A stretch of 64,000 nt of DNA from IMG/VR virus record IMGVR_UViG_3300045988_101835; one strand, 5' to 3'. Positions 2,779 to 40,729 of the stretch are shown piece by piece (position 1 is the stretch's first letter; every line of letters begins with the position of its first letter). The notes under the pieces are model-generated. The model saw only the letters and a program-made list of their open reading frames with translations, was not told the origin of the DNA and did not search any database. Source of the stretch: a virus. A program made the position numbers and the translations under genes.

Positions 2779-3593
2779 AGCTTCCGTCTAATGGTATCTT
2801 TGGTCTCACGCAGACTGTTTTAAACACGCCGCTTGTCGGTCATCTTTCCCAGCTTGCTTCTACGGATTACACGGAGGAGCAGATTCGTCAGGAGTTTGTT
2901 CGTATGCTTCTGGCTCACCCGGAGGACCTTGAGCGCATGACTATCTGCGACCGCGATTACTTGTTCATGATCGCTGCGTCGGGTGTTTGTATGAACCAGA
3001 TCACTACGGACTTTGTTTGTCCTGTGTGTAAGGATGGTGGCAAGGACGTTGTCAGCTCTGTTGTTTATGACATTACTCAGCAGGAGGTTATTGAGCTTGC
3101 GCCTAAGACGCCGTCGGAGGTTAAGAAGACTTGGGATGACTTGGGTGTGGAGTATACTTACCGTATTCTCCGTGCTTCGGACGAGGAGCGCTTGGTCGAA
3201 TATGCTTTAGCCGATTACGATCATTACAGTCTTCGTTATGAGCAGGCTTTCATGGCTGCTACGCTTGGTCAGGATTGTAGCGATAATGAGGCTATCGCTA
3301 AAGGTATTGACGTCATTAGTCAGTATCCGTTAGCGGTTTACTTCTCGGCGTTACTGTTCACGCAGGTTGCGTTTCATGGTGTTCGTCCGAGTATAATGGG
3401 TAAGTGTCACGAGTGCGGTCGTGATGTTAAGGTTTTGGTTCCTTTTGGGGATACGGTTAAGATGCTTGACTCTGCACGTCTTGTTAACCGTTTCTCTCAG
3501 ATTTCACATATGGTTGACTTCAAGTCTTTCTTGGAGCTTTCTATGCCTATGCTTGCGCAGTTTGAGGCGAATGCGCGTGCTCAGGCTAAGTAG
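2769..3593 (+). CDS. Zn-ribbon protein upstream of the tape-measure-like gene (possible tail assembly chaperone)
   Basis: ATG at 2769 lies 7 nt after the IS right end. Contains CPVCKDGG...CHECGRD cysteine pairs. The functional call rests on position only. Confidence 0.45.
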   Translation: MIVQLPSNGIFGLTQTVLNTPLVGHLSQLASTDYTEEQIRQEFVRMLLAHPEDLERMTICDRDYLFMIAASGVCMNQITTDFVCPVCKDGGKDVVSSVVYDITQQEVIELAPKTPSEVKKTWDDLGVEYTYRILRASDEERLVEYALADYDHYSLRYEQAFMAATLGQDCSDNEAIAKGIDVISQYPLAVYFSALLFTQVAFHGVRPSIMGKCHECGRDVKVLVPFGDTVKMLDSARLVNRFSQISHMVDFKSFLELSMPMLAQFEANARAQAK

Positions 3594-3605
3594 TGGTGTT
3601 GTTAT

Positions 3606-6050
3606 ATGGCGTCGGACGAGAAGTTTAAAATTAGCGGCCTGAATGCCGCACTGGATGAGTATTTGGAGAAGATTGACAAGGTCAATCTTAGCCGCAAGGA
3701 CCTTCTTGCCAACAAGGAGCTTCTGGAGGATTCCTTGAAGTTGCTGGCTTCGCTGGATGATAAGATGAAGACGATTGAGTCTTCGTCTGCTTCGTCTTCC
3801 GAGAAGTCAGCCCGTTTAGCTTTGCTTGATAGCATCCGTTCTAACGTCATGTCGGGGAAGCCCGTTGATTCGTTGCTTACACAGGAGTCCCGTATTTCGG
3901 ATTTAGCACGCCGGGGTTCGGGTGCTGCATCGTTTCCGCGCATTTCCTCTAGTGAGCGTGTTGGTCTTCTGCGTGTTTCGGAGCGTGTTGCCGCCGCGGG
4001 GTTAGGTTCTACGCTTGGGGGCTTGTCTCCCCGCCAGCTTGATGCTATGCTTTCGTGGGCTACCCGCTCGGGCGGTGGTCCGGGTCGGTCCGGCATGAGT
4101 GCTGCTTTACAGTCGAGTGCTTTTGAGCTTGGTAGCAGCTTGACTTCGGGTGGCACGTGGGATCGCCTTCGTTCCACGTCTGATGATCATCTTATTGATT
4201 CTTTGGACGAGGCTGAGCGTGAGGAGAAGTTCGATCAGTCGGTGGCTACTATTCAGACTACGTCGGATGCGATCCTTGCTTCTTTGGGCAAGCCTACGAA
4301 GGGTGCGCCAGCGCGCCTTGAGCCTAGACAGGCAAAGCCGTCTAAGAGTGGCCGTGGTGATTGGTGGTCCACTTTGAAGTTGCTGGGCGGCATTGCGGGG
4401 ACGGTTGGCGTTCTGTATGGTCTTTTCAGCAATCAGAAGGTTCAGCAGTGGTTGAACGATGTTCTTCTCAATCCGGATAAGTGGAAGGAGTGGGGCGATA
4501 AGATAGATGCTATCTGGAATCGTCTTGGAGATGTATTCAACTTGGTTATGTCTTCTACCAAGTCTACCCGTGATGCTACTATTGCTTCTGCTAACGCAGG
4601 GTATGAGCTTTATAAGAGCATGGATTCCGATTTGCAGGGTTATGTTAATAGCTTCAATAGGGATGTTGGAGGTATGCAGCCGATGCGTGTTCTCGGCTTA
4701 TCGGATATTGATCGTTCTGTTGCTGCGTCGGGGGTTGACGAGGCTTTGTCTGCTGCTGCTAAGCTAGGGTTCGGTGCTTTGGGTGCAGGCGTTGTACTGA
4801 AGAAGGGTTTATCTGCCTTGTACGCTGGTGGTCCTGCGAGTGCTGCTGCTTTGGCGTTGTTCTCCATTAAGGCGTGGTCTGAGATTAAGGAGACTCAGCG
4901 CAAGACTTTTAATATTGTCTCTGCCGCGTGGGCCGTTGAGCATGGCTTAGCCGCGGCTTATCTTTTCACTGAGGGTTCGGGGTCGTCTCCGTCGTTGGTT
5001 GCTTTGGGTAAGATCGAGGATGCTTCTGGGACGACTTCCTATGATTCCTTGTCTCCCCAAGAGCAGATGGGCTACTCCACATCGTTGTTGCTTCAGGTAG
5101 AGTCGGAGCGCCAGCGATCTAATTCTTATGCTTTGCTGTCTTCTGCTTTCTCATCCAATCCTGCTATGTATGCAGAGTTGGTCTTGGGTAAGTCTGGTTT
5201 GTCGCCCGACGCTGCTCGTGGTGAGCTTATGGATTGGCTGAGTAAGTCTTCTCCGGAGGAGCGTCGTGCTTTCCTTGCTCAGCATCCTGAGATTTATCGG
5301 ATGATTACGAGTGGTAACGTTGGTCTTGAGCTTGGTCGCCCTGCAGATTATTTAGGTCGTGCAAATGGTATGTATTCCCATTTGTTCTTTAATACTGTAG
5401 ACAGTGCTATGGCTGCGAGTGCTCAGGGTTACGAAGGTGGTGAGTCAGACCCGGCCTTTGTAGAGGCTTGGGATAAGATTGCTCGCGGTGAGGTTAACGT
5501 AGCACCATCCGGTCGTGGCTTGCTTCGCACTGCGGACATGCAGCGTCAGTATGATGCTTTGCGCGATCCGCGCGTGGTAGGTTATCAGACTGCGGCTTCA
5601 TTCAATATCCTCAGTATGTTTGCAGGTGATAATGTGGATGCTGGGATAATGAAGTTAGGTATGAAGGGCGCTACGGGTCGCCGTGCATCTGCAGGAGCTT
5701 TGGCAGACTTCCAGCGTGCTTTGGCGTTGCGTAACATTCGTCTTCGTGGAGGTGATTCTGCGGTGGTACCTGAACTTCAGCTTTCCACTTTCTTGCCTAG
5801 TATTGCGGGGTCTATACAGACTACGACGAGTTCTGCTGCTCCGAAGCTGGAGGAGTATGTTTCTGCTTCCGATTTAAAGTTGGATGCTTTGCTGTACAAG
5901 GTTGACACTTTAGCCCATCAGTTGGATGTCCTTCGTGAGTATCGGGCATCGTCACCGTCGACCTCTGAGGGTTCCGGCAATGCTACTATGGTCAATAACA
6001 ATTCTACCACGGTCATTCGTACCGCTAACGATCCTACAGGCTCTATGTAA
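3606..6050 (+). CDS. Tape-measure-like protein (814 aa)
   Basis: Coiled-coil N-terminus and a Gly/Ala-rich hydrophobic segment (WWSTLKLLGGIAGTVGVLYGLF). Its size and position match P2 gpT-like genes. Confidence 0.5.
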   Translation: MASDEKFKISGLNAALDEYLEKIDKVNLSRKDLLANKELLEDSLKLLASLDDKMKTIESSSASSSEKSARLALLDSIRSNVMSGKPVDSLLTQESRISDLARRGSGAASFPRISSSERVGLLRVSERVAAAGLGSTLGGLSPRQLDAMLSWATRSGGGPGRSGMSAALQSSAFELGSSLTSGGTWDRLRSTSDDHLIDSLDEAEREEKFDQSVATIQTTSDAILASLGKPTKGAPARLEPRQAKPSKSGRGDWWSTLKLLGGIAGTVGVLYGLFSNQKVQQWLNDVLLNPDKWKEWGDKIDAIWNRLGDVFNLVMSSTKSTRDATIASANAGYELYKSMDSDLQGYVNSFNRDVGGMQPMRVLGLSDIDRSVAASGVDEALSAAAKLGFGALGAGVVLKKGLSALYAGGPASAAALALFSIKAWSEIKETQRKTFNIVSAAWAVEHGLAAAYLFTEGSGSSPSLVALGKIEDASGTTSYDSLSPQEQMGYSTSLLLQVESERQRSNSYALLSSAFSSNPAMYAELVLGKSGLSPDAARGELMDWLSKSSPEERRAFLAQHPEIYRMITSGNVGLELGRPADYLGRANGMYSHLFFNTVDSAMAASAQGYEGGESDPAFVEAWDKIARGEVNVAPSGRGLLRTADMQRQYDALRDPRVVGYQTAASFNILSMFAGDNVDAGIMKLGMKGATGRRASAGALADFQRALALRNIRLRGGDSAVVPELQLSTFLPSIAGSIQTTTSSAAPKLEEYVSASDLKLDALLYKVDTLAHQLDVLREYRASSPSTSEGSGNATMVNNNSTTVIRTANDPTGSM

Positions 6051-22705: not shown

Positions 22706-22791
22706 GCTCGGATGGTGAAATAGGTATACACGCCGGATTTAAGCTCCTGTGATCAGCAATGGTCGTGCGGGTTCGATTCCCGCTCCGAGTA
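22706..22791 (+). tRNA. tRNA-Leu (anticodon UAA), type II
   Basis: Acceptor GCTCGGA/TCCGAGT (G1-U72). Anticodon loop TTTAAGC. Long variable arm GATCA-gcaa-TGGTC. T arm GCGGG-TTCGATT-CCCGC. Discriminator A. No encoded CCA. Confidence 0.8.
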
Positions 22792-22811
22792 CTTTTTTTT
22801 TGCAACAAAGA

Positions 22812-22843
22812 TTTGCAACTTTAAATTAACTTTTTTATCTTTG
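22812..22843 (+). promoter_or_regulatory. Bacteroides-type promoter (-33 TTTG / -7 TAtcTTTG)
   Basis: TTTG at 22812-22815, 20-nt spacer, TAnnTTTG at 22836-22843. It sits upstream of a small ORF and the tRNA/RNA island. Confidence 0.6.
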
Positions 22844-22867
22844 CATCAAGTAAATACTTGTGATGGT

Positions 22868-23116
22868 ATGCTCAGAATGATTCATAGTTGGGTTAAGGTG
22901 CTTCGTGGCCTTCGTATTCGGGTCAGTGCGGGTTCTTTGCTCTTGCTCAGTTCAGCATCCCCTATTGCTGTGGGGTCTCGAGTGTGGCATTCGGACTATG
23001 GTATCGGTGTGGTGCGTATTGTTGGGACGTGTGAGTATGTTGTTAGTTTCGAAGCTGGTTTTGAGAGTTCCACGTACAAGATGTATTGCTGCAGGGTTCT
23101 CTGTTCTTTGGGTTAA
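22868..23116 (+). CDS. Small protein with Tudor/DUF3553-like GxRVxHxxyGxGxV motif
   Basis: 82 aa. VGSRVWHSDYGIGVVRIVG...VVSFEAG resembles the small beta-barrel found at UvrD/PcrA C-termini. Confidence 0.4.
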   Translation: MLRMIHSWVKVLRGLRIRVSAGSLLLLSSASPIAVGSRVWHSDYGIGVVRIVGTCEYVVSFEAGFESSTYKMYCCRVLCSLG

Positions 23117-23125
23117 TTTACATTT

Positions 23126-23209
23126 GCCGTCTTGTCGGAATTGGTAGACGAGAAGGTCTCAAAAACCTTTGTCCTTTAGGACGTCCGGGTTCGATTCCCG
23201 GAGACGGTA
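23126..23209 (+). tRNA. tRNA-Leu (anticodon CAA), type II
   Basis: Acceptor GCCGTCT/AGACGGT (G1-U72). Anticodon stem AAGGT/ACCTT with loop CTCAAAA. Variable arm GTCC-ttta-GGAC. T arm CCGGG-TTCGATT-CCCGG. Discriminator A. Confidence 0.8.
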
Positions 23210-23795
23210 CGACTTCCCGACGTGGTTGCCGGGGGTCCCCAGCCTTGAAATGGTAGGTGCTGGGTTTTATATTGTGCACATTCCGGTTTTAGCTTGGTTT
23301 ATCCGTCCGGGTGTGGGTGCGTTGCTAGAGGAGTCTTTCCTACCGTAGGTTCCGTTTGCATAGCTGAATATCAGGCGTGGCGGCTTGGAGTAGCACGGCA
23401 ACAGCTAAGTATGGGTTCTTTTGTTTTCGCTGCAGTTAACGGACATATGGTTAGTCCTTGCTGGGTTTCTTATAAAGGGATTTCTCAGGGGTAGTGCAGT
23501 GTTTAACGAAGTTTGTTTATGGGGCATTATCCGTTCGCCACTATGCTTTGGCTATAAGGATTCATACTTTTTATACGTCTATGGTTTGTGTTCCTTGACA
23601 TAGTGAAGACGGCACCGTCGAGAGTGATACTCTTTCGCTTTTAACCTTTGGAGCTCACTCATCTTTTTCTTCAGGCAATTCCTTGTGCATGTTCTGGATT
23701 TAGCCTGTCACTCTCACTTGTTAGTGGCGTGTGCTGTCTTCACCTTTTTTTTTCAGTGGGACCTGCCTGAAAGTAGAGTAGGGTGTATGTGAATC

Positions 23796-23820
23796 AGGGG
23801 TTCGATTCCTTATACCGACT
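23796..23820 (+). other. Orphan tRNA-like T-arm and 3' acceptor fragment
   Basis: AGGGG-TTCGATT-CCTTA followed by TACCGAC. I could not find a matching 5' acceptor or D/anticodon arm upstream. Confidence 0.25.
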
Positions 23821-23878
23821 AAGTTCGTCGCTGGTTGGTGCTGGTTTGCAATATAGTGCCTTCGGGGTCCTTCTTGTT

Positions 23879-23966
23879 GGAGAGTTGGCGGAGTTGGTCT
23901 AACGCGCCTGCCTACTAATCAGGTGTCCGGGTTTCCGGGCCGGGAGTTCGAATCTCTCACTCTCCG
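23879..23966 (+). tRNA. tRNA-Ser with unusual anticodon ACU (A34), type II
   Basis: Acceptor GGAGAGT/ACTCTCC with discriminator G. 3-bp D stem. Anticodon stem CCTGC/TCAGG (31-39 C-U mismatch) with loop CTACTAA. Variable arm CCGG-gttt-CCGG. T arm GGGAG-TTCGAAT-CTCTC. Confidence 0.7.
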
Positions 23967-24236
23967 CGCCGAGTTGTTTCCGGTTGTGCTCTGAATTTAA
24001 CTGGCGTCGTTCCCGAACGTATCGGGGGATGGTTGAGGTGATACCATCAGAAATCACCTGCGGGCAGACGCGTATTTGTAGGAGTTGACTTGCGTCTATA
24101 TCAGCAGGCTGCGGTTAAGATGTATGAGTTCACCGCTACGGTTGACTGTATTAAAACTCTATTCATCGGTGCTTGTTAAGCGCGCAATGACAGGCATGAC
24201 GTCCCTATCTGCAGTGGCGTGCGTAGGGCTTTTTAG

Positions 24237-24321
24237 GAAAGTTGGCAGAGTGGTCGATTGCGCTGGTCTAGAAAACCAGTGATCCTTTAGGATTCGGGAG
24301 TTCGAATCTCTCACTTTCCGC
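24237..24321 (+). tRNA. tRNA-Ser with unusual anticodon AGA (A34), type II
   Basis: Acceptor GGAAAGT/ACTTTCC with discriminator G. Perfect anticodon stem CTGGT/ACCAG with loop CTAGAAA. Variable arm ATCC-ttta-GGAT. The T arm is identical to the other Ser tRNA. Confidence 0.75.
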
Positions 24322-24422
24322 CGCCCCTCCGGTTGTTAGACCTAATTGGAAGTCGACTAAGATTAGGTTGAGGCAACAGTTGTCTCACTTGCGTTTGCTT
24401 AAGTGTGGCAATGAGAGGGTCC

Positions 24423-28956: not shown

Positions 28957-31900
28957 ATGGGTGATTTTTATACTCATGTTGTAGCGATCGATGATGATTC
29001 GATTGGTACGGCTCCGGAGTCCACGGGTGTTCGCCGTGTTGGTGACTCTGTTAGTTCGTTCCTGCAGGTGGAGTCGGGTGCTTCGCGTCGTGTTACGGAC
29101 GCGCGTCGTGGTGGTTTCACTGATGGGGAGATTCACAAGGTGGCTTGTAGTCTTTGCAGCATGTCGCGTGGCAGTCGCCGTGCGTCTTTGGCTAAGATGA
29201 GCGCTCCTTTGCGTCGTCGTCTTCTTGCGGAGGGTAAGCGCATTCAGTCTGTTGTTGCGGATTCGTTTATCGAGTACACGCCGGAGGTTTGCTGGGCCAT
29301 CAATGACATTATAGAGAATGACTCGTCTGCGGGTTATGACATCTTGAAGTCTAAGTACCGTTCTTTGCCGCCGGAGGTTAAGACGTTCTATGACGAGTTT
29401 TTGAAGAACCGTTACTCTCCTGCTGCTGTTCGTGCTCAGGAGATGTTGGGTCCTTATCGTCTTGTTCAGGATGACGCTCGTGTGGAGGCATTCCTTGAGG
29501 GTGGTTCTACGCAGGAGGGTGCTTTGGATGAGGTTATCGAGGCGGCTTCTGTTTCTGGCGAGGAGCTGTACGAGACTACTCAGGAGAAACTTGACGAGCT
29601 TGGCGAGCGTGCTCAGTCGGCAGCTATGACTTTCATTGAGGAGGTTTCTAATATCTACGAGGAGGGCATTGCGGATGTTGTTTCGGCCCAGACGTTGGCT
29701 TCCGCCGAGGAGGCTACGGAGGATGTCTTGGAGGCACCTATTCCGGAGGAGGATGTTGATGCCCTTCCTGATCCGAATGTGGATGATACGGATGCCGGAG
29801 CTTCTTCGGAGGTTCAGGATTCTGCCGCGTCTCCGGAGTTTGTTGTTCATGGTACTATTGATCCCGTAGATGATCCCGATTGGGCGTCTAAGAGTAAAGC
29901 TACCAATTGGGATATTGTAGACCTTGCTAGTTACACTCAGCGTCAGGAGTTCTTGGGTTCGCTTGGGAAGAAGGATGCTAAGGGTCGTGATCTTTATGGT
30001 CTTCGTTACTATTCTCCCAATGGTCGCAATTCGAGTGTTGCGGAGTTGATCTTCGAGGATTACTCTCGTTTGCTTGATCGTGCTAAGGCAGCATCATCGT
30101 CTAAGCCTGTTGCCGATGACGTCGATGGCTTGGTGTTGGCTTCGGAGCTTTCCGCTCAGCCGCTGCCTGCTGCTCAGGCGGCTCCAGTTGTTGAGGGTGC
30201 TATGTCGCAGGCTGTTCCGTCCGTTCCGGTTAACGTTGGTACTACGGTTCAGGTTTCGTATTTGGGTAATGTTTATTCGGGTGTCATCACTTCTGTTGGC
30301 AATGGTGTTGCCGTCATCGAGGGTCTTCCTTTTGAGTACTTCTCCTTGCGTCAGGCCGAGGGTGCCTTCACGGGTTCTGATGATGACGTGACTTTCGCCC
30401 TTGCGGATGTCGTTCCGGTTCAGATTGTCGAGGAGACGTCTGTTGCACCTTCGTCGAATGATGCTGACGTTATTATGGCTTCGGAGGATGTTGTTGAGGG
30501 CGATGATGCTCCGATAAGTGCGCCGGAGGAGACTCAGGTTACGGAGGATGAGATTATCGAGGATTCTGCTTCAGAGGAGTCTTCTAAGCTGATGGGTCGC
30601 ATTCTTAATGCCTACTTGGACCGGGGTGCTGCTGACGAGTTCGACGTCTATTTGACGGACGATAAGAGTGGTGGTCCTCGCCTGCATATCGTGTGCGGGG
30701 ATGATTCGCTTCATGCTTCTATTTTCTATCGTGGTAATCGTGGCTGGAATAAGGTTTATACCTTCGAGTCGGATGACGCTGCTATTGAGGCTGTCGAAGA
30801 GCTGACGGACGATGTTCTTGCGAAGCTTCCCGGCGTCATGGCGGAGCCTGTAGATGCTTCTGCTCTGCTGTTCGATAGTGTTCGTGACGATGTCGATCCT
30901 GCTGTTGTTTCGGAGTTCGAGTCTGTCGTGGGTCCTGAGATTCTCAACGACGTTGCTCCGCTTATTCATGTAGTTCATACGACCGAGGATGATGTTGTTC
31001 GACGGAGTGTATGGTCTTCGTTGAAGTCCATTGCGGAGGATATTATTCTGGACTTTGGTGACACTTTGGGTGGGTTGTCTGTAGGTGATATCTTGTCTAT
31101 CTTCAATAGTCACAAGTTTTCTACGCCGTGGGGTGCTGTTGTAGACTCTGCTGTTTCGGATGCTGCCGTTAACTTCACGGTCGATCAAATTATGACGGCT
31201 TTGCGCAATGGGGTTGACATTGCTAATGCGGATGATTCTGTATCTATCGTTTTTGATGATGGTGATGGTCTTGGTGATGTATTCGTATTCACCACGCCGT
31301 CGGGGTCGGTTGTTAAGGATGGCTCCGAGGCTGTTGCTTACTTGTCGGATCATCTTGCTGAGTTTAAGGACGCTATTTCGAATTCCTATGACGATATTTC
31401 AAAGGCTTTGGCTTCTGCGGGGTCCCCTACAGGCGAGGTTCCTGTGGAGGATGCGGAAGGCGATGTTTCTCCTGAAGTTGTGGTTGAAGATGCACCGCAT
31501 GCCGTAGACGAGACTTCCGATCCTGCAGCTATTGACTGGGGTGCTGTGGCTTTGGTTCTGAAGGACTGGGGTCTTGCTAATTGCTTCACTTTGGCTCAGA
31601 CGCCCGATCAGACTCATTTGGTTTCCGCTGCGGAGGCTTTGGCTTCGGCATTGTCTTCGGATACCCGTCTGGAGACTCGTCTTGATGCTTCTGTTCCTCG
31701 TATTCTTTGCAAGGATCAACGGTTTATTGACATCAAGGCCGATGGTGTCTATGTAGGCACTACGTTGTTTGTTTACCAGACTGCCGATGATGCTATTGTT
31801 ACCTTCGCGTCTACCATGTCGAATGCTGCTATTCAGCTTGCTCATAAGATTTACGATGCTACGGCTTCGGATGTTGTTGCTGAGGTTGCGAATGAGTTAT

Positions 31901-32619
31901 CGGAGGAAGAGGAGATCGCTCTGCTGCAGGATTCTTTGGAGACGGTTCGTTCGAAGGCTGATTGGAAGGATCGCCCGTGGGCACAGCATGCATCTTTCCT
32001 CCAGAAGTACCCGCGTCTTCGTATGGTGATTGATGACGAGAGTATCTTGTCGGACGCCGCTAAGCAGGAGGTTCTGCGGTCTATCGAGAACGAGATTTCG
32101 GAGGCTTTGAAGTCTAAGAACATTTTGATTGAGGATTCTGCGTCTCTGGCGATTGATCCGGATAAGGTGAAGGATAGTGCTCCTAACACTTTGGACATTC
32201 CTCATACGGCTTCGACTTATCATCGTGTTCGCAATACCCGGAAGGTTCTGGATTCGGTTCTTTCTGTTGCTTCTGAGATCATGGGCGAGCGCATTAGTGC
32301 CGCTAACTACAAGAGTCTCTGCAAGTCTTCGAGTAAGGCCGCTAAGGCGAAGGTTCAGCGTGTTGTGGATACCGCCGTTGTTATGAACGAGTTGGACTTG
32401 ATTTGTCCTGACTTATACAAGCGCAAGTTAACGGATTCCTATTGGGTTTGCGACAATGCATCGCGTGTTTCGGATTCGTTCAAGCTGAATGCTTCGTTTG
32501 CTGCGGGTCACGGTTGCTTGGTGTCTAATGCTCCGTTGGATGCGGACGTTGTTGCGGACCGGGAGGTTTCGAGCTTCAAGCTCAAGAATGGCTCTGAGCT
32601 TCACGTGGTTTTAGTTTAA
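28957..32619 (+). CDS. Very large acidic protein (1220 aa), function unknown
   Basis: Long uninterrupted ORF with D/E/A/V/S-rich composition. No catalytic motif was recognised. Confidence 0.6.
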   Translation: MGDFYTHVVAIDDDSIGTAPESTGVRRVGDSVSSFLQVESGASRRVTDARRGGFTDGEIHKVACSLCSMSRGSRRASLAKMSAPLRRRLLAEGKRIQSVVADSFIEYTPEVCWAINDIIENDSSAGYDILKSKYRSLPPEVKTFYDEFLKNRYSPAAVRAQEMLGPYRLVQDDARVEAFLEGGSTQEGALDEVIEAASVSGEELYETTQEKLDELGERAQSAAMTFIEEVSNIYEEGIADVVSAQTLASAEEATEDVLEAPIPEEDVDALPDPNVDDTDAGASSEVQDSAASPEFVVHGTIDPVDDPDWASKSKATNWDIVDLASYTQRQEFLGSLGKKDAKGRDLYGLRYYSPNGRNSSVAELIFEDYSRLLDRAKAASSSKPVADDVDGLVLASELSAQPLPAAQAAPVVEGAMSQAVPSVPVNVGTTVQVSYLGNVYSGVITSVGNGVAVIEGLPFEYFSLRQAEGAFTGSDDDVTFALADVVPVQIVEETSVAPSSNDADVIMASEDVVEGDDAPISAPEETQVTEDEIIEDSASEESSKLMGRILNAYLDRGAADEFDVYLTDDKSGGPRLHIVCGDDSLHASIFYRGNRGWNKVYTFESDDAAIEAVEELTDDVLAKLPGVMAEPVDASALLFDSVRDDVDPAVVSEFESVVGPEILNDVAPLIHVVHTTEDDVVRRSVWSSLKSIAEDIILDFGDTLGGLSVGDILSIFNSHKFSTPWGAVVDSAVSDAAVNFTVDQIMTALRNGVDIANADDSVSIVFDDGDGLGDVFVFTTPSGSVVKDGSEAVAYLSDHLAEFKDAISNSYDDISKALASAGSPTGEVPVEDAEGDVSPEVVVEDAPHAVDETSDPAAIDWGAVALVLKDWGLANCFTLAQTPDQTHLVSAAEALASALSSDTRLETRLDASVPRILCKDQRFIDIKADGVYVGTTLFVYQTADDAIVTFASTMSNAAIQLAHKIYDATASDVVAEVANELSEEEEIALLQDSLETVRSKADWKDRPWAQHASFLQKYPRLRMVIDDESILSDAAKQEVLRSIENEISEALKSKNILIEDSASLAIDPDKVKDSAPNTLDIPHTASTYHRVRNTRKVLDSVLSVASEIMGERISAANYKSLCKSSSKAAKAKVQRVVDTAVVMNELDLICPDLYKRKLTDSYWVCDNASRVSDSFKLNASFAAGHGCLVSNAPLDADVVADREVSSFKLKNGSELHVVLV

Positions 32620-33787: not shown

Positions 33788-35779
33788 ATGTTGTGGGGCA
33801 CTTTTAATGGGTACAAGGTTGGCTTGGTTCAGAGTCTGTCGGATTTGGATTACATCCGGGCAGATTTGCATGCCAATATAGTGGCTGGTTTGGATTCGGA
33901 GACGACGAGCTTATCTTTTGTTCACGGTCGAGTGGTAGGGGTATGTATCGCTACGGGTAAGACTTACAGCAAGGATGACTACTGTGGTTATTACATTCCG
34001 ATTCGTCATGTGGGCTATCACGCCAATCTTCCGGTTGACCTTGTTATTGCTTTCGTGCAGTATGTCGTCGATAATTATATGACGATGTGGTGGAACCGGA
34101 GTTTCGACTTTTCTATGTTGGAGCTTGACGGGTTCAAGGCACCTTTTGTTGGTAAGACTCATGACGTCCAGTTCATGGCGCATGAGATTTTCAATGAGCG
34201 TTATCCTAAGCTGAAGGTCTTTGCTAAGCGTCTTTTTGGGTTTAAGACTATCGACTTCGAGGATAATAATGCGGTTAATGGTAACTTCGGCTCACTCGAC
34301 CCGGAGGTCTCTTTCATCTATGCTGCTGCCGACCCTCTCATCACGACACTGTGTGGTCTCCGTATTTGGAGTGACTATCCTCATATTCGTCAAATTTACC
34401 CGCTGGATAACGAGTCCGGTGAGGCTGTTCGTCGCTTGGCTAAGGCGGATATCCTTCTTGATTATGATTTCTTGGATCAGGAGGTCATTCGCACTTCTGC
34501 CCGCATGGAGGATGTCCGGCAGCGTATCTATCAGCTTGTGGGCTACGTTTTCAACATCAGTAGTGAGGATGACAAGGCGGATGCCTTGAGCCGCTTTGTC
34601 ACGTTGACGGTCCGTACTAAGAGTGGCAAGTTCAAGACGGATAAGAATGTCTTGGCGACGATAGATCATCCGTTAGCTAAGCTTATGCTGGAGTATAATG
34701 CCTTGAGCACTTACTTGAAGTCTTTCGTTTCCAAGATGGTTTCGTGGCGTCATCGTCAGATTCCGGTTCATATTAATTATAACCTTGTCGTGGCGTTGAC
34801 GGGTCGTATGAGTAGCTCCGGGTCGGAGGGTAATGACTTCTACGTTCCTTTTAATGGCCAGAACTGTGTTCGTGGTTCTAATACTACAGTTTTCACTCGT
34901 TCCGGGTCCAAGTTGATTTCGGAGGTTGTTGTTGGTGACGAGGTTTGGGATGGCGATGCTTTTCGGCGCGTGTCTGCGGTTTTGGATCAGGGTGTGCGTG
35001 AGATTTACCGTTTGACTTTGGAGGATGGTCGTTTCTTGGACGCGACATCAGATCACCCGGTTCTCACGGCTTCGGGGTTCCACGAGGTTTCTACGTTACT
35101 CGGGGTCGATGTTTTGGTGAGTGAGAACCCTCATGTTTTCCTGACTGGTGTAGATTGTGGTCCCGCTAGGTACTTATGTAGGGTTGTGTCGATCCACCCT
35201 ATTGGCTATGATCGTGTTTATGACATTACGGTCGATGTATCAGAGCGTTTTGTGGCCAACGGTATTATAGTTCATAATTGCCCGAAGGTTTCTTTGAAGA
35301 TGTATTTGCATACAGATCCTCTTATAGGCTACTGTTTGAAGCATGAGGCGGAGGGTGCTGTGTGTGATGAGTCGGGCAAGCCTATTAAGTATAAGACGAA
35401 GGGAGGACTTCGTGATGCCTTCTTGGCCAACCCGCCGGGGGAGGATGACTGGGTAATGGTTGGCAACGATTATTGTATTCATCCGGATACATTAGTATCG
35501 ACACCTTCGGGAGATGTTCGAATAGGTGATATGGTTGGTTGTGAGTTCGAGGTTTCTACGCCTTATGGTCCTTGCGTTGCTTCTAATGTTCACCATACTG
35601 GTCGTCGCAAGCAGTATCGTATAGAGTTGTCGGACGGTGCGGTTCTGGTTTGCTCTCCAGATCATCGTTTGTGGGTGTGTCGTGATGACGTAGATATGTG
35701 GGTTAAGGCTTCTGAGCTTTTGAGTAGTGATTATATTTACACTCAGTCTGATGTTACTTATCCGGAGATTGTGAGCTAG
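33788..35779 (+). CDS. Family-A DNA polymerase, N-terminal gene (exo domain, palm start, intein 1, IntN of split intein)
   Basis: GLDSETTSL (ExoI), ALTGRMSSS and FNGQN (PNLQN-like), ..VGNDY (motif A Asp). Ends at TAG 35777-35779 inside intein 2. Confidence 0.85.
   Translation: MLWGTFNGYKVGLVQSLSDLDYIRADLHANIVAGLDSETTSLSFVHGRVVGVCIATGKTYSKDDYCGYYIPIRHVGYHANLPVDLVIAFVQYVVDNYMTMWWNRSFDFSMLELDGFKAPFVGKTHDVQFMAHEIFNERYPKLKVFAKRLFGFKTIDFEDNNAVNGNFGSLDPEVSFIYAAADPLITTLCGLRIWSDYPHIRQIYPLDNESGEAVRRLAKADILLDYDFLDQEVIRTSARMEDVRQRIYQLVGYVFNISSEDDKADALSRFVTLTVRTKSGKFKTDKNVLATIDHPLAKLMLEYNALSTYLKSFVSKMVSWRHRQIPVHINYNLVVALTGRMSSSGSEGNDFYVPFNGQNCVRGSNTTVFTRSGSKLISEVVVGDEVWDGDAFRRVSAVLDQGVREIYRLTLEDGRFLDATSDHPVLTASGFHEVSTLLGVDVLVSENPHVFLTGVDCGPARYLCRVVSIHPIGYDRVYDITVDVSERFVANGIIVHNCPKVSLKMYLHTDPLIGYCLKHEAEGAVCDESGKPIKYKTKGGLRDAFLANPPGEDDWVMVGNDYCIHPDTLVSTPSGDVRIGDMVGCEFEVSTPYGPCVASNVHHTGRRKQYRIELSDGAVLVCSPDHRLWVCRDDVDMWVKASELLSSDYIYTQSDVTYPEIVS
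34865..35278 (+). mobile_element. Mini-intein 1 (138 aa) in the PNLQN|IP-like motif
   Basis: Starts CVRGSNTTVFTRSGSKLISEVVVGDEV. Block B is TSDHPVL. Ends FVANGIIVHN followed by C. Confidence 0.8.
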
Positions 35780-35899
35780 TGTATGGGACGCGCTTCTAAT
35801 ATAAAATCCATTTCGGTATTACAGGATGAAGTTGACATGATTGACTTCTCTGTTGCGGGTGCTCATTGCTACTATGCCAATGGTATGTTGGTCCATAAC
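35474..35899 (+). mobile_element. Split intein 2 in motif A (IntN 35474-35776, TAG, TGT, IntC 35783-35899)
   Basis: IntN (101 aa) starts CIHPDTLVSTPSGDVRIGDMV and contains SPDHRLW. IntC (39 aa) is MGRASNIKSISVLQDEVDMIDFSVAGAHCYYANGMLVHN, followed by C. Confidence 0.7.
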
Positions 35900-38707
35900 T
35901 GCTCTGAGGAAATCGCCCTTGTAGCTAACATGTCCCGTGAGGAGGGTTTCTTGTATCCGCTGCGTCATGATCTCGATGTCCATATGTACGTTGCGGAGAC
36001 GCGCTTCCATGTTTCGGACCCTGAGTTTCGTGATAAGTCTAAAGCTGTCTCGTTCGGTAAGATTTACGGTGGTGGTCCTACGATGATCGCTAACCGACTT
36101 GGTATTTCGAAGCAGGAGGCCAATAAGATCATCTATGACTACGATACGGGTATGCCTGTTTTTGCTAGGTGGCAGAAGGCTTTGCAGAAGCAGGCAAAAC
36201 GTACGGGTTTTGCTAAGACGTTCTTTGGGCGCACTATTTACTTGGCTCGGTGGTTTAATTCTCCGGATAACGGATTGCGCGCTTATGCTGACCGAGTTGC
36301 TCTCAACAGTCCAATTCAGGGTCCCACGCCCCCTAACACTCTGATTTTGACCACTTTAGGCTATGTTCCTATTAAGCATTTATATACCTTAGATGTTGCA
36401 GGGCAGCTTGCTCCATATGGTGTTAAGTGTTGGAATGGTGTTCGATGGTGCGATTTTCATGTTGTTGATGCGGGGTTAGGTGATATCCTTCGTTTTAAGT
36501 TCAAGCGTGGCAACTATGTTGACGTTGACGTTCGCCATCAGTTTAAGGTTTGGACTTCGGATGGGTGTGTTTTTGAGGATGCTACTAAGTTGTCGGTTGG
36601 GGATCGTGTTGCGGGGTCTTTGTGCCGTCGCCTTGAGTTCCCGGCACTGACGTTCTGTTGTTCTTCACAGTCGCGGTTGAAGGGTCTGCTTATCTCTCAT
36701 TCTCCCCGTACCCTTTCCTACGAGGATAGCGTGACTTTGATGTGGTGGGTCGGTTATGCTTTAGGTGATGGTAACTTTAGTACGCCTAATGCTATTCGGT
36801 TTACATTAGGGGCTACGGAGACTTTCCGGTATGACGATGCTTCGGCTTTCTTTCCGTCTATTGGTTGTACGGTTGGTAAGTTGAATCATTGTACGGCAGA
36901 TATGCCGGGGCGTAAGGGTGAGTGTTACACGTTCGTTGTGTATGGTGTCGATGTTATGCGGTGCTTGCGGCGCTTGGGTCTTGATTTTCGTTGGCGTCAT
37001 CACACTAAGCGCATTCCGTGGCGACTGTGTTGTTCGTCTATTGCCCAGCGCAAGGCTTTGGTTGATGGATTGTTTGCTTCAGATGGCTGTAAGACAGAGG
37101 AACAGTTCATGTGGCATATGTGCCAGTCGGACATTCTTCGTGACTTGCAGCGGTTGCTTCGGACTTTAGGGTTTGATAGTACTTTGTATGCTGCGCCAGA
37201 TGGTAAGTCCTATCGCTTGGTTGTGTGTGCGACTCAGGATTTCGCTCGGTTTATGGGTTATCCTTTGAAGGAGCAAGCGGGTCGTATTGGTCCGGGTCGC
37301 TGGAATGATCGTCGGATGGTTCCGTCGGTTTTGTGCCAGCGGTTTGTCTCTTGGCAGCAATCGCACGGAGGTCCGTCGCCTGATCTGCCCTCTAAGCGTC
37401 GCCAGTCGGATATGGCATTAATGAGTCGCCTTCGTCATGGTGGTTCTGTTTCGTTTTCGACTTTCGAGAGCTTGGCTTCGGATTATGGCTATACGGAGTA
37501 TCAGACGTGGGATGACTATCTGGAGGCTCAGGAGATCGTTGATATTGTTTCTTTGCCGCCGGAGAACTGCTATTGCCTTTCGTTGGATGATGAAAGCCAT
37601 TGCTACGACACGGATGGTCTTATTTCTCATAATTGTTTACCTCGGTCCTTGTATTCGCCGTCGCAGGATGGTAAGGTTTATTCTCCGTGGCAGTCGTTCG
37701 TCGGCCACCGTATGACTTTCCAGACTCGGTCGGACGGCGCACGTGTTGGCGTTCCTACGTTCCGGGGTGAGCACGACCTTCATGTTGCTTTGTTCGATAC
37801 GGGTGACTTCTGTGTTTGCAATCTGGGTCATAAGTTCGTTAAGTATGGTACGGATCGCGTCTTGCTTGGTTTGGATGAGATAGGTACTGCGCCTGTTGCT
37901 TTGATTCCGCCTATGCGCAAGAGTAAGTGGGGCTGGTTGAAGGGCTTGTTTAGTAGCCATAAGTGGACTTTGGAGTCGCTTCTTGCGCATGGTAAGATGG
38001 GCCGTGACATCCGCACGGACGATTGGGCTGTCTGCTGGTGTATGCTGAAGGCATTTATGACGCGAAAACGGGTCCATACGCGGTCGATGTTATCCGCAAT
38101 GATCCTACGGTCCATCTGCGATCTTTTCGGCTGGAATTTGGTCTACGATTTGCGCCATTCGGTTGTTGATGATTATGCTTTCAAGTTACGGTGGGGTCGT
38201 CGGCGTAAGGGTCACGCTATTTTCGCCACGGAACTTGGAATTCGGGATAACGTTATTTCTCCGTCCATGTCTTCGGGCCTTCAGACTTACCCGTTGTGTG
38301 GCTTCATTCATAAGAACACGGGTGGTGACTTGATTCGCCGTGACTTGGTTAAGTTCGAGCGTTTGAATGATCTGCTCCCGGAGTGGCGTGAGAACGTCCG
38401 CTTCGTGGTTACGGTTCACGATGAGGTCCAGTTCCGTGTTCGCCGTAAGTATTTGTTCAAGGCTATTCCTATCATCCAGAAGGTCATGAACTTCTGGCCT
38501 AAGAATTTTGAGACTCCGGTTGTTGTTGAGCCGGGTGTTGGTTTCCGCTGGGGCGGTGAGCTTGATATTGACGCTGTTCTGGATGACGGTCGTATTGTTC
38601 CTAAAGGTTACATGCCGCCGCCGGAGTACTTCGAGGGCCACGAGGTCTATTGGCTTCGTTCGTGGAAGGAGGAAGAGGAGAAGAAGCGTGGTTTGTCTAA
38701 GAAGTGA
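35783..38707 (+). CDS. Family-A DNA polymerase, C-terminal gene (IntC, motifs A-C, inteins 3 and 4)
   Basis: CSEEIALVANMS (rest of motif A), KAVSFGKIYGGG (motif B), NSPIQG / TGGDLIRR, VTVHDEVQF (motif C). Same frame as the N-terminal gene. Confidence 0.85.
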   Translation: MGRASNIKSISVLQDEVDMIDFSVAGAHCYYANGMLVHNCSEEIALVANMSREEGFLYPLRHDLDVHMYVAETRFHVSDPEFRDKSKAVSFGKIYGGGPTMIANRLGISKQEANKIIYDYDTGMPVFARWQKALQKQAKRTGFAKTFFGRTIYLARWFNSPDNGLRAYADRVALNSPIQGPTPPNTLILTTLGYVPIKHLYTLDVAGQLAPYGVKCWNGVRWCDFHVVDAGLGDILRFKFKRGNYVDVDVRHQFKVWTSDGCVFEDATKLSVGDRVAGSLCRRLEFPALTFCCSSQSRLKGLLISHSPRTLSYEDSVTLMWWVGYALGDGNFSTPNAIRFTLGATETFRYDDASAFFPSIGCTVGKLNHCTADMPGRKGECYTFVVYGVDVMRCLRRLGLDFRWRHHTKRIPWRLCCSSIAQRKALVDGLFASDGCKTEEQFMWHMCQSDILRDLQRLLRTLGFDSTLYAAPDGKSYRLVVCATQDFARFMGYPLKEQAGRIGPGRWNDRRMVPSVLCQRFVSWQQSHGGPSPDLPSKRRQSDMALMSRLRHGGSVSFSTFESLASDYGYTEYQTWDDYLEAQEIVDIVSLPPENCYCLSLDDESHCYDTDGLISHNCLPRSLYSPSQDGKVYSPWQSFVGHRMTFQTRSDGARVGVPTFRGEHDLHVALFDTGDFCVCNLGHKFVKYGTDRVLLGLDEIGTAPVALIPPMRKSKWGWLKGLFSSHKWTLESLLAHGKMGRDIRTDDWAVCWCMLKAFMTRKRVHTRSMLSAMILRSICDLFGWNLVYDLRHSVVDDYAFKLRWGRRRKGHAIFATELGIRDNVISPSMSSGLQTYPLCGFIHKNTGGDLIRRDLVKFERLNDLLPEWRENVRFVVTVHDEVQFRVRRKYLFKAIPIIQKVMNFWPKNFETPVVVEPGVGFRWGGELDIDAVLDDGRIVPKGYMPPPEYFEGHEVYWLRSWKEEEEKKRGLSKK
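36323..37633 (+). mobile_element. Intein 3 (437 aa) with LAGLIDADG homing endonuclease; Pro at position 1
   Basis: Inserted after PIQG. Block A-like PTPPNTLILTTLGYVPIKHL, block B VDVRHQF. LAGLIDADG motifs WVGYALGDGNF and LVDGLFASDG. Block F CYCLSL, ending DGLISHN followed by C. Confidence 0.65.
37634..38317 (+). mobile_element. Intein 4 (228 aa) directly abutting intein 3
   Basis: Starts CLPRSLYSPSQDGKVYSPW. Block B is CNLGHKFV. Degenerate LAGLIDADG-like GWLKGLFSS. Ends CGFIHKN followed by T of the extein TGGDLI. Confidence 0.55.
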
Positions 38708-39471: not shown

Positions 39472-40729
39472 GGTAATCATATACAATTTTATTCTGCCGT
39501 TTGTAATAGACGTAAAATAATTATAACTTGCAGCCATGAAGAAGACATTCAAATATCGCATCTACCCGAACAAAGCCCAGCAGGCTTTGTTACAGGCGAC
39601 GTTTGGATGCTGCCGCTTCGTTTACAACAAAACGCTTGATATTAGGAAGACGGCTTACGAGACCGACAAGATGAAGCTTAGTAAGTTCGATTGCATCAAT
39701 CGGATGACTGCGTTGAAGGATGAGTATACGTGGTTGCGTGCCGTTCCTGCGGTTTGCTTGGTTCAGGCTGTTGACAACATGGATACAGCCTACCAAAACT
39801 TCTTCAAATCTGGTAAAGGTTATCCGAAGTTTAAGTCGAAGCATCGTAGCCGTAAGTCCTGTAAGTTTATGGTGCCTAAGTGTGTTGTATTGCAAGATAT
39901 TAGTCGTTTAAAGCTTTCTAAGTTAGGGTTAGTCAAGTACAAGAAAGACCGGGAGTTCGTTGGCGCTTTGCGTCACATTGTGGTTACACAAGAAAACGAT
40001 GGTAAGTACTACGCGTCGTGCTTGGTGGAGACGGGCGTTGAAGCACCTAAGCCAAAGCCCGTTGATGATAGCACAACGGTCGGCATTGACTTGGGGCTGA
40101 AAGACTTTATCGTCACGTCCGACGGGCGCAAGATACCTAACCCGCGCTTTTATGCTACTATTGACCGACGCATAGCTAGGTTACAGAAGCATGAAGCACG
40201 AAAGACGAAAGGCTCGAAGCGTCGTGCCCGCATTCGCTTAAAGATTAACAAACTTTATATCAAGAAGCAAAACTTAATTAAGAATTATATTTACCATGCC
40301 GTCAAGACGTTACTGCGTGAGAGTCAAACGATAGTAATGGAGAATCTTAATGTTGGCGGCATGGTTAAGAATCATAGTTTAGCTAAATCCATACAGAACA
40401 TTTGCTGGGGTGAACTTCGCAGAGTGTTAGAGTATAAGTCTCAATGGCTTGGTCATAACCTTATTTTCATAGATCGTTGGGCACCGAGTACGAAGACTTG
40501 TAGTTGTTGCGGCTTTAAGAATGATATATTAACACTTTCAGATCGTTCGTGGACATGTCCGGGTTGTGGTACGCATCACGACAGAGATGTTAACGCTGCC
40601 CTCAACATTAAGCGTATGGGTTTAGAAAAGTTATTGCCTACGGTGAGTGGGTTCGACGGACGTGGAGAGATCGGTTACGATCTCGACGAAGCGTCAATAT
40701 GTGCAAGTTATTAATTGTATATAATCACC
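39472..40729 (+). mobile_element. TnpB-only IS element, copy 2 (about 1258 bp)
   Basis: Left end GGTAATCATATACAATTTT matches the reverse complement of the right end, GGTGATTATATACAATTAA, at about 16 of 18 positions. It sits between a terminator and an early promoter. Confidence 0.7.
39536..40714 (+). CDS. tnpB: TnpB (RuvC-type RNA-guided nuclease)
   Basis: 392 aa with the same motif set as copy 1 (VGIDLG, VMENLN, CSCCGF..CPGCG, HDRDVNAALN). Confidence 0.9.
   Translation: MKKTFKYRIYPNKAQQALLQATFGCCRFVYNKTLDIRKTAYETDKMKLSKFDCINRMTALKDEYTWLRAVPAVCLVQAVDNMDTAYQNFFKSGKGYPKFKSKHRSRKSCKFMVPKCVVLQDISRLKLSKLGLVKYKKDREFVGALRHIVVTQENDGKYYASCLVETGVEAPKPKPVDDSTTVGIDLGLKDFIVTSDGRKIPNPRFYATIDRRIARLQKHEARKTKGSKRRARIRLKINKLYIKKQNLIKNYIYHAVKTLLRESQTIVMENLNVGGMVKNHSLAKSIQNICWGELRRVLEYKSQWLGHNLIFIDRWAPSTKTCSCCGFKNDILTLSDRSWTCPGCGTHHDRDVNAALNIKRMGLEKLLPTVSGFDGRGEIGYDLDEASICASY

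Follow-up and report, generated by a model that had tools for sequence, protein, structure and literature searches.

Two directly abutting inteins in a phage family-A DNA polymerase, the upstream one with a class-3-type signature

How can a protein mature when two inteins lie head to tail in a single insertion site, and what becomes of the catalytic residues at the point where they meet? This question is raised by a DNA polymerase gene in IMG/VR virus record IMGVR_UViG_3300045988_101835, from which a stretch of 64,000 nucleotides (nt), hereafter the window, was analyzed. The source phage, uncultured and ~127 kb in size, derives from human-gut metagenomes. In the window, a family-A DNA polymerase (Pfam DNA_pol_A_exo1 and DNA_pol_A; coordinates of all features are collected in Table 1) is divided between two open reading frames (ORFs), each encoding one half, and this gene holds four intein-like insertions: intein 1, split intein 2, and two further elements in the second ORF that we call module 1 and module 2. 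The polymerase is seemingly the sole replicative polymerase gene in the neighborhood seen, and megablast of the locus against GenBank phages found no match and hence no close relative in that collection.

Two inteins at one insertion site

Between the extein residues PIQG and TGGDLI, the second ORF carries 665 codons without a stop (36323-38317, + strand). Their translation, identical residue for residue to that given in the initial annotation, begins PTPPNTLILTTLGYVPIKHL, reads ENCYCLSLDDESHCYDTDGLISHN/CLPRSLYSPSQ in the middle and ends LCGFIHKN, after which the polymerase resumes with TGGDLIRR. Both flanks match Pfam DNA_pol_A (1.7e-33), the N-terminal match ending at PIQG, and in every relative tested the DNA_pol_A match is interrupted at about profile position 304. 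With the insert taken out, the extein forms one unbroken alignment (residues 4-267) to phage DNA polymerase I genes, across the junction; as read from the sequence, the junction peptide of the spliced polymerase, spanning PIQG-TGGD, would be NSPIQGTGGDLIR. Since the tandem arrangement was found again in independent ENA, Logan and IMG/VR assemblies, it is no assembly artefact.

A homologue search returned six proteins containing the whole insert (49-96% identity), together with two, P0007 and P0008, that were 95-98% identical to the query yet covered only one third of it. In both of these proteins, and in five phage loci (L001-L005), exactly the segment from Pro1 to Asn437 is absent, and the polymerase reads PIQG/SLPRS...FIHKN/TGGDLI. 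Over module 2 and the C-terminal extein, the related phage genomes without module 1 show 97-99% identity, and alleles with and without module 1 differ at the DNA level by a clean unit of 1311 nt; the junction DNA of the module-2-only allele is CCAATTCAGGGG/AGTTTGCCTAGGTCC. Because natural alleles lack exactly module 1, the boundary between the modules is independent of any reading of motifs. The initial annotation had placed two complete inteins of 437 and 228 amino acids (aa) back to back between PIQG and TGGDLI, with no extein between them. The translation and the presence/absence alleles agree with these boundaries, the module-2-only alleles lie on the same haplotype background, and module 2 stands alone in 16 other polymerase lineages. 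Taken together, these findings establish that the 665-aa insert is two separate inteins that abut with zero extein residues between them.

Searching 1.84 billion representative proteins with a profile of the insert gave 1015 matches, the best 150 of which underlie the family counts given here. States were sorted by local mapping with hidden Markov models (HMMs), and the site was defined as ...N-x-P-[IV]-Q-G/[TS]-G-[GA]-D.... Whether homologous polymerases carry one module or both, a check that the initial annotation had proposed, could be answered from these matches, as each kind of occupancy was found: about 80 representatives have a LAGLIDADG intein of the module-1 type by itself, 16 non-redundant ones have only a mini-intein of the module-2 type, and others have the tandem. 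P0007, P0008, P0014, P0015 and P0022 are examples of module 2 alone. Counting the window, 16 sequences show the tandem; they form 11 non-redundant lineages, in which module 1 shares 27-64% identity with the window's copy. The stand-alone relatives of module 1 are homologous to it over its full length (HMM E-values 1e-15 to 1e-50). With the spliced extein as query, a word-indexed search for homologues found one fragment only and so gave no survey of empty sites.

Judged by its blocks, module 2 is a resident class-1 mini-intein without a working endonuclease. In its family alignment (A4, 24-33 sequences), Cys1 is nearly invariant (position 1 is Cys or Ser), His66 and Asn228 are invariant, and every member has Thr or Ser at +1. 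Other block residues of this family are unusual, B:7 being Asn, Ser or Asp, F:4 Ser and G:6 Lys; a penultimate Lys of this kind is known from functional phage inteins (PMC5050341). None of 24 module-2 sequences matched the Pfam intein models and NCBIfam likewise recognized none for module 2, while searches of PDB sequences with profiles A2 and A4 returned nothing meaningful. Foldseek with the module 2 model gave no significant match, though inteins dominate the top entries. This mini-intein family is a blind spot for intein annotation. The degenerate LAGLIDADG motif that had been ascribed to module 2 turned out to be a visual resemblance, as the middle of module 2 showed no significant hhalign similarity to the endonuclease region of the module-1 family.

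The initial annotation had itself named one way in which it could fail, namely that the insert might be a single intein with an internal duplication. That reading, or the related one of a nested intein, we regard as close to excluded. Its one foothold is that deep profiles reveal remote homology between module 2 and the module-1 family in their splicing parts: hhalign aligned their N-terminal parts (blocks A and B) with an E-value of 2.3e-5 and their C-terminal parts (blocks F and G) with an E-value of 1.8e-6, the blocks being in register. Against it, shallow profiles of the two modules (A1 and A2) appeared unrelated (hhalign probability 0.35%), each module is also found by itself at this site, complete at both ends, and module 1 is lost or gained as an exact 1311-nt unit. 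Internal duplication was rejected on these grounds, and the profile comparison indicates that the two modules are not the product of a recent duplication.

Catalytic residues of the upstream intein

The splicing blocks of module 1 were assigned from an hmmalign alignment of 104 family members. Pro1, His72 (B:10), Phe74 (B:12), Cys418 (F:4), Ser435 (G:5), His436 and Asn437 are invariant in seven close homologues (47-94% identical), and His72, His426, His436, Asn437 and the Cys at +1 are conserved across the module 1 family. In canonical members of the alignment ([MV][YF]D[IL]xV...HN), the column of Cys418 holds Asp. Pfam Intein_splicing recognizes the tandem homologue P0011 (63 bits against a cut-off of 35.8), the match ending at its ...SHN, and TIGR01443 (intein_Cterm) gave a weak, sub-threshold match to residues 417-438 of the window's module 1 (E 0.17). 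Most readings of the initial annotation stood up to this comparison. It had placed Pro at residue 1, the very position that Cys occupies after ...QG in stand-alone relatives; a nucleophile at some other, true N-terminus, which would have spoken against it, did not appear, as the presence/absence alleles fix the boundary and residue 1 is Pro. Likewise, the Cys that it saw in block F in place of the standard Asp lies in the F:4 column, and the Trp-Cys-Thr triplet that it called incomplete does have Phe at B:12 and Ser at G:5. Of the two cysteines in the CYCLSL that it reported, Cys418 is kept in all tandem lineages and Cys416 is not conserved outside the closest clade. Pro1 itself proved to be no oddity, since the class-3 prototype, the MP-Be DnaB intein, also begins with Pro (PMC2807308).

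The endonuclease described as apparently intact (about residues 130-400 of module 1) was recovered by Pfam LAGLIDADG_3, which scored 39 bits where the cut-off is 22.5, with both catalytic residues, Asp149 and Asp254, invariant in the close homologues. In the AlphaFold2 model this part of module 1 has a predicted local distance difference test (pLDDT) score of 70-90, and Foldseek aligned it to I-DmoI with a template modelling (TM) score of 0.6-0.68 (E about 1e-5); the best matches of the module 1 model were whole endonuclease-bearing inteins (TliVMA, E 1.8e-13). Among PDB sequences, the insert alone found noise only, and profile A1 found only the LAGLIDADG part of PI-SceI (E 0.04). By motifs and fold, module 1 contains a two-motif LAGLIDADG endonuclease, which may be active in cleavage.

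Comparison of tandem with stand-alone members located the difference between them in the catalytic center. Residue 1 is Pro in 13, Asn in two and Gly in one of the 16 tandem sequences, compared to Cys in stand-alone members wherever the junction is readable (P0078 is ambiguous). Position F:4 is Cys in 16/16 tandem members; in the stand-alone members it is Thr in 96%, rarely Ser, and Cys in 0/~79. The penultimate residue, G:6, is His in 16/16 tandem members compared to Lys in 92% of the stand-alone ones, and the +1 residue is Cys in 16/16, this being Cys1 of module 2, as opposed to an extein Thr, Ser or Cys. When about 400 columns of the alignment were scanned without bias, F:4 and G:6 came out as the top two discriminators between the states, in both directions, and residues 427, 421 and 68, in blocks B and F, came next. 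Among tandem members, no Cys other than Cys418 is conserved in at least 80%. Asp at B:7, fixed in stand-alone members, is relaxed to Asp, Gly or Ser in the tandem, in agreement with the class-3 prototype, which can do without this residue (PMC2807308). The other tandem members have Phe, Leu, Val or Tyr at B:12 and Ser or His at G:5.

No column of module 2 separates the tandem from the solo state. Since module 2 is unchanged between the two, the upstream intein is the one with the remodelled catalytic center. The idea that Ser1 of module 2 always becomes Cys upon the arrival of module 1 was discarded, as it is true only locally: 14/16 solo module-2 inteins already start with Cys. The family-wide tie between the tandem state and a class-3 signature provides the strongest argument for class-3-type splicing of module 1, a role that the sequences suggest.

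Class 3 is defined by the lack of an N-terminal nucleophile together with a Trp(B:12)-Cys(F:4)-Thr(G:5) triplet, in which the Cys at F:4 forms the first branched thioester (PMC2807308; PMC5222942). Hoffmann et al. use the criterion 'no Cys at the N-end plus Cys at C2:4' (PMC7891396). By either wording, module 1 and all 16 tandem members lack Cys, Ser and Thr at position 1, and the Cys at F:4 (C2:4) is present as Cys418 and in 16/16 of the tandem. In a census of 1701 class-3 inteins, Trp was replaced in 6.1% and Thr in 4.6%, and an MCT variant (AceL NrdHF) was shown to splice by the class-3 route (PMC7891396). Module 1 is like the class-3 inteins MP-Be DnaB, Msm DnaBi1, MchDnaB1, AceL NrdHF and Bvi IcmO in its Cys at F:4, His at B:10, C-terminal His-Asn and absence of a residue-1 nucleophile. 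It resembles Bvi IcmO, the one known precedent for Cys+1 in class 3, in its +1 residue and AceL NrdHF in its non-Trp B:12, and class-3 inteins are, as is module 1, mostly LAGLIDADG-bearing and phage-associated. In contrast to these inteins, module 1 lacks both Trp at B:12 and Thr at G:5, and another intein always follows directly after it. Canonical class-3 inteins reside in P-loop ATPases (helicase, terminase), whereas the host of module 1 is a family-A polymerase and all its nearest relatives among the 1.84 billion representative proteins are inteins that occupy this polymerase site and carry a class-1 signature. We infer that module 1 works like a class-3 intein outside the canonical class-3 lineage.

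Those nearest relatives, stand-alone 'T-type' inteins at ...PIQG/[TS][GA]AD..., share with module 1 the site, the splicing domain and the two-motif LAGLIDADG endonuclease. They differ in having Cys1, Thr at F:4, Lys at G:6 and Cys-Asp at B:6-B:7, where module 1 has Pro1, Cys at F:4 and His at G:6. Their active site (P0019-P0158) is itself non-canonical, with Cys-Asp rather than x-Thr at B:6-B:7, Thr rather than Asp at F:4, and Lys in place of the penultimate His. The literature searched contained no name for these inteins and no description of the stand-alone PIQG/T family.

Other systems share parts of this arrangement. Like the tandem, the double inteins of haloarchaeal MCM (MCM-a/MCM-d) and Msm DnaB (i1/i2) place two inteins in one host protein, but there the sites are separate, with extein between them and extein residues at -1 and +1, whereas here no residue intervenes. 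Twintrons, introns inserted in an intron, are also mobile self-splicing elements in a site defined by another; they are nested and act at the RNA level, whereas modules 1 and 2 are juxtaposed and act at the protein level. In the MCM double inteins, one intein often invades alleles that hold the other, and a flanking splicing residue can be co-converted (PMC10643990).

Splicing, mobility and ancestry of the pair

Module 1 looks mobile. Alleles with and without it occur on two haplotype backgrounds. The window (with) and L005 (without) show 0 differences from -255 to -22 relative to the insertion point, 12 from -21 to +164, and 0 from +165 to +423; L008 (with) and L001 (without) show 0 differences from -306 to -20, 11 from -19 to +114, and 0 from +115 to +476. 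The diverged patch around the insertion point thus measures 135-185 nt. Junctions with module 1 read GGY/.../TGY TTA and those without it GGG/AGT TTG, so that the patch includes the change of AGT (Ser) to TGY (Cys) at the +1 position of module 1. Further pairs with and without module 1 were found in distant lineages (P0011 and P0027; P0021 and P0145). Such patches are what homing with co-conversion of short flanks would leave, and we regard them as suggestive, supportive rather than conclusive. The putative homing target would be the junction of extein and module 2, ...CAGGGG/AGTTTGCCTAGG...; half of this target is module-2 DNA, and invasion by module 1 should therefore be limited to alleles with module 2 already in place. 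Among the three closest clades, exteins are 58-60%, module 1 48-64% and module 2 48-57% identical. Since this divergence matches that of the extein, the module pair is old and under purifying selection.

With moderate confidence, we read the insert as two head-to-tail inteins, a resident class-1 mini-intein and a mobile upstream LAGLIDADG intein that would splice by class-3-type chemistry. In this scheme, Cys418 (F:4) would attack the Gly-Pro1 bond and hold the N-extein as a branched thioester; the N-extein would then move to Cys1 of the resident intein, the +1 cysteine of module 1, and cyclization of Asn437 would free module 1. Module 2 would finally excise in the standard class-1 manner, with Thr+1 as acceptor, which would restore PIQG-TGGD. 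It would be equally possible for the order to be reversed, module 2 leaving first and module 1 being left with Thr+1.

The main rival is a class-2-type (KlbA-like) route, in which Cys438, at once the +1 residue of module 1 and Cys1 of module 2, would attack the Gly-Pro1 bond directly and Cys418 would be only structural or metal-binding. Direct attack by the +1 residue is what defines class 2 (PMC5222942), and module 1 shares with KlbA the absence of an N-terminal nucleophile and the Cys at +1, the latter present in 16/16 tandem members; in the window's clade, moreover, the change from Ser to Cys at +1 travels with module 1. KlbA, however, has Ala1, Asp at F:4 and no obligate block-F Cys. The class-2 route would leave unexplained why F:4, the best discriminating column, is Cys throughout the tandem and never among the stand-alone members, and in Bvi IcmO the Cys+1 could not replace the Cys at F:4. 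We consider this route quite unlikely. Unlikely as well, if a little less so, is a coupled machine, in which the N-extein would be relayed from Cys418 to Cys438 to Thr666 before module 1 is released, such that the branched intermediate of module 1 is directly the thioester intermediate of module 2 and the insert may leave as one 665-aa piece. In favor of this relay, the two pathways would share one chemical species, a thioester on the Cys438 side chain; remodelled catalytic residues in module 1 go strictly with the tandem state; and the pair has diverged together at about the rate of the extein. Module 2, however, contains no tandem-specific residue, and the invariant His-Asn end of module 1 argues that it has kept its own C-terminal cleavage.

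It is very unlikely that module 1 is a decaying, splicing-dead insertion and that the polymerases carrying it are non-functional alleles or pseudogenes. Such a view could draw on the failure of Pfam to recognize the splicing domain in the window and on the missing nucleophile at position 1. Against it, the frame is open; His72, Cys418, His436, Asn437 and both endonuclease Asp residues are invariant; the tandem is kept in 11 lineages down to 27% identity, with divergence no faster than that of the extein; the tandem proteins P0001-P0004 stand for 186 member sequences; and the polymerase is apparently the only replicative one in its neighborhood.

Several observations weigh against the preferred reading, that of a mobile class-3-type intein placed upstream of a resident class-1 one. 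Module 1 of the window has Phe74 rather than Trp at B:12 and Ser435 rather than Thr at G:5, and the tandem has Cys at +1 in place of the Ser or Thr typical of class 3. The window's own module 1 gave no Pfam Intein_splicing match. The role proposed for Cys418 is read from conservation and covariation; in the AlphaFold2 models, built from 7-sequence alignments, pLDDT is below 50 in the splicing domains of both modules, too low to place Cys418 relative to the scissile bond. Tandem members are related to one another, such that the 16/16 covariation may reflect one or few events, and exceptions may exist among the matches beyond the best 150, either Cys-type inteins without module 2 or Cys1-type inteins in front of it. 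With respect to mobility, these polymerase genes are mosaic in several places, and the patch at the junction is hence no proof of co-conversion. When clustering of differences at the junction was assessed with a global Fisher test, the result was p = 8e-5 for the window and L005 and p = 0.34 for L008 and L001, the latter because other mosaic patches lie further downstream.

The ancestry of module 1 bears on a published view, according to which class-3 inteins are monophyletic and unlikely to have evolved from class 1 or 2 (PMC7664689); Beyer et al. also suggested a separate, protease-like origin for class 3. In a neighbor-joining tree of Cys-type and Thr-type members, the Cys-type was monophyletic in 2/100 bootstraps and formed a basal grade; the tree did not polarize the change, a further point against the preferred reading. 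Whichever the direction, one homologous family at one site holds both signatures. It is possible, if on balance doubtful, that a natural change of mechanism took place in one lineage, in which a class-1 intein at PIQG/T would have become class-3-type by loss of Cys1 and gain of Cys at F:4, linked to life directly upstream of a second intein; the two would then pass the acyl group along three stations, Cys418, Cys438 and Thr666. Class-3 chemistry would in that case have arisen more than once and be reachable from class 1, contrary to the view cited above.

Accompanying inteins, neighboring genes and implications

The remaining two inteins of the polymerase lie upstream of the tandem. Intein 1 is a class-1 mini-intein recognized by Pfam (Table 1). 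Split intein 2 looks like a naturally split intein with adjacent halves, and it would join the two polymerase ORFs by trans-splicing. Recoding of the in-frame TAG between the halves was considered and rejected, given that long ORFs in the window end in TAG more often than in any other stop, that no suppressor tRNA was found in the window, and that all homologues restart with Met-Gly at the same place. P0008 and L001-L004, which lack split intein 2, read NDY/ASEE. At 35900-35902 the window has Cys as the +1 residue of intein 2 (NDY[intein]CSEE), compared to Ala in P0008; the +1 nucleophile here travels with the intein, as does Cys in place of Ser at module 1. In L008 the halves are separated by about 620 nt (L008 positions 3529-4149) with small ORFs at 3667-3885 and 3834-4166 and a LAGLIDADG-like motif, FLLGLLDSDGWV; Pfam recognized neither ORF. 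This insert resembles a 'fractured gene' arrangement with a free-standing endonuclease, and the window appears to have lost a segment of the L008 type. For annotation, this means that the polymerase would need four protein-splicing events, one of them in trans, where standard pipelines call two unrelated ORFs.

Among near-identical phages, the inteins other than module 2 vary independently of one another, while module 2 is present in every relative. L001-L004 have intein 1 and neither intein 2 nor module 1; L005 has inteins 1 and 2 without module 1; L006 and L007 have module 1 and neither intein 1 nor intein 2; and the window and L008 have all four.

Beyond the polymerase, a TnpB-type gene lies 0.8 kb downstream. 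A similar gene is found about 3.2 kb downstream in L001 instead, and because of this different position the gene is probably a mobile insertion. A long acidic ORF just upstream of the polymerase cluster has the same length in L001-L005, and four tRNA genes lie further upstream (Table 1).

Table 1. Features of the polymerase locus and its surroundings (positions in the window; blocks and residues numbered within each module)
Feature	Position	Strand	Description
N-extein end RVALNSPIQG	36293..36322	+	Conserved family-A polymerase motif; left half of insertion site
Module 1	36323..37633	+	437-aa candidate LAGLIDADG homing intein, class-3-type signature Pro1...Cys418...Ser-His-Asn437; delimited by presence/absence alleles
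Module 1 block A, PTPPNTLILTTLGYVPIKHL	36323..36382	+	Residue 1 is Pro; no N-terminal nucleophile
Module 1 block B, GNYVDVDVRHQFKVW	36509..36553	+	B:7 Asp69, B:10 His72, B:12 Phe74
Module 1 endonuclease core	36737..37093	+	Motif 1 36737-36778 (GYALGDGNF, Asp149) to motif 2 37052-37093 (GLFASDGCK, Asp254)
Module 1 blocks F and G, ENCYCLSLDDESHCYDTDGLISHN	37562..37633	+	Cys418 (F:4), codon 37574-37576, proposed branch nucleophile; last residue Asn437
Module 2	37634..38317	+	228-aa mini-intein of class-1 design; Cys1, codon 37634-37636, doubles as +1 of module 1
Module 2 block B, GDFCVCNLGHKFV	37802-37840	+	His66
Module 2 blocks F and G, ...VISPSMSSGLQTYPLCGFIHKN	38243-38317	+	Ends ...HKN, then Thr
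C-extein TGGDLIRR...SKK and stop codon	38318..38707	+	Thr (38318-38320) is +1 nucleophile of module 2
ORF 1	33788..35779	+	N-terminal half of polymerase: 3'-5' exonuclease and start of polymerase domain; contains intein 1 and N-fragment of split intein 2; stop TAG
Second ORF	35783..38707	+	974 aa; contains the 665-aa insert
Intein 1	34865..35278	+	138-aa class-1 mini-intein, NGQN/CVRGSN...GIIVHN/CPKV; Pfam Intein_splicing 65.5 bits
Split intein 2	35474..35899	+	N-fragment 35474-35776 (101 aa), TAG 35777-35779, TGT, ATG at 35783, C-fragment 35783-35899 (39 aa, ...MLVHN/CSEE)
TnpB / IS605 OrfB-type gene	39536-40714	+	HTH_OrfB_IS605, OrfB_IS605, Cas12f1-like TNB
Acidic ORF	28957-32619	+	1220 aa; no Pfam match
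tRNA genes	22706-24322	+	Leu-TAA, Leu-CAA, Ser-ACT, Ser-AGA; no suppressor

In the literature searched, which was incomplete and gives no proof of novelty, we found no description of natural inteins that abut without an intervening extein residue, and a 2025 survey of non-canonical actinophage intein architectures mentions none; the nearest precedent is the 'double inteins' at separate, nearby MCM sites (PMC10643990). Abutting inteins are a recurrent architecture, present in at least 11 diverged phage polymerase lineages, and no one-off. In this architecture the +1 nucleophile of one intein is residue 1 of the next, and half of the invader's putative homing site is intein DNA, such that module 1 would be a mobile element specialized on alleles where another intein already resides. 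The sequence space for intein searches would be widened by a class-3-type intein that lacks Trp at B:12 and Thr at G:5, together with a very divergent mini-intein that Pfam misses, and the modules may provide new orthogonal splicing tools. With both signatures present in one family at one site, the question as to the origin of class-3 inteins becomes directly testable.

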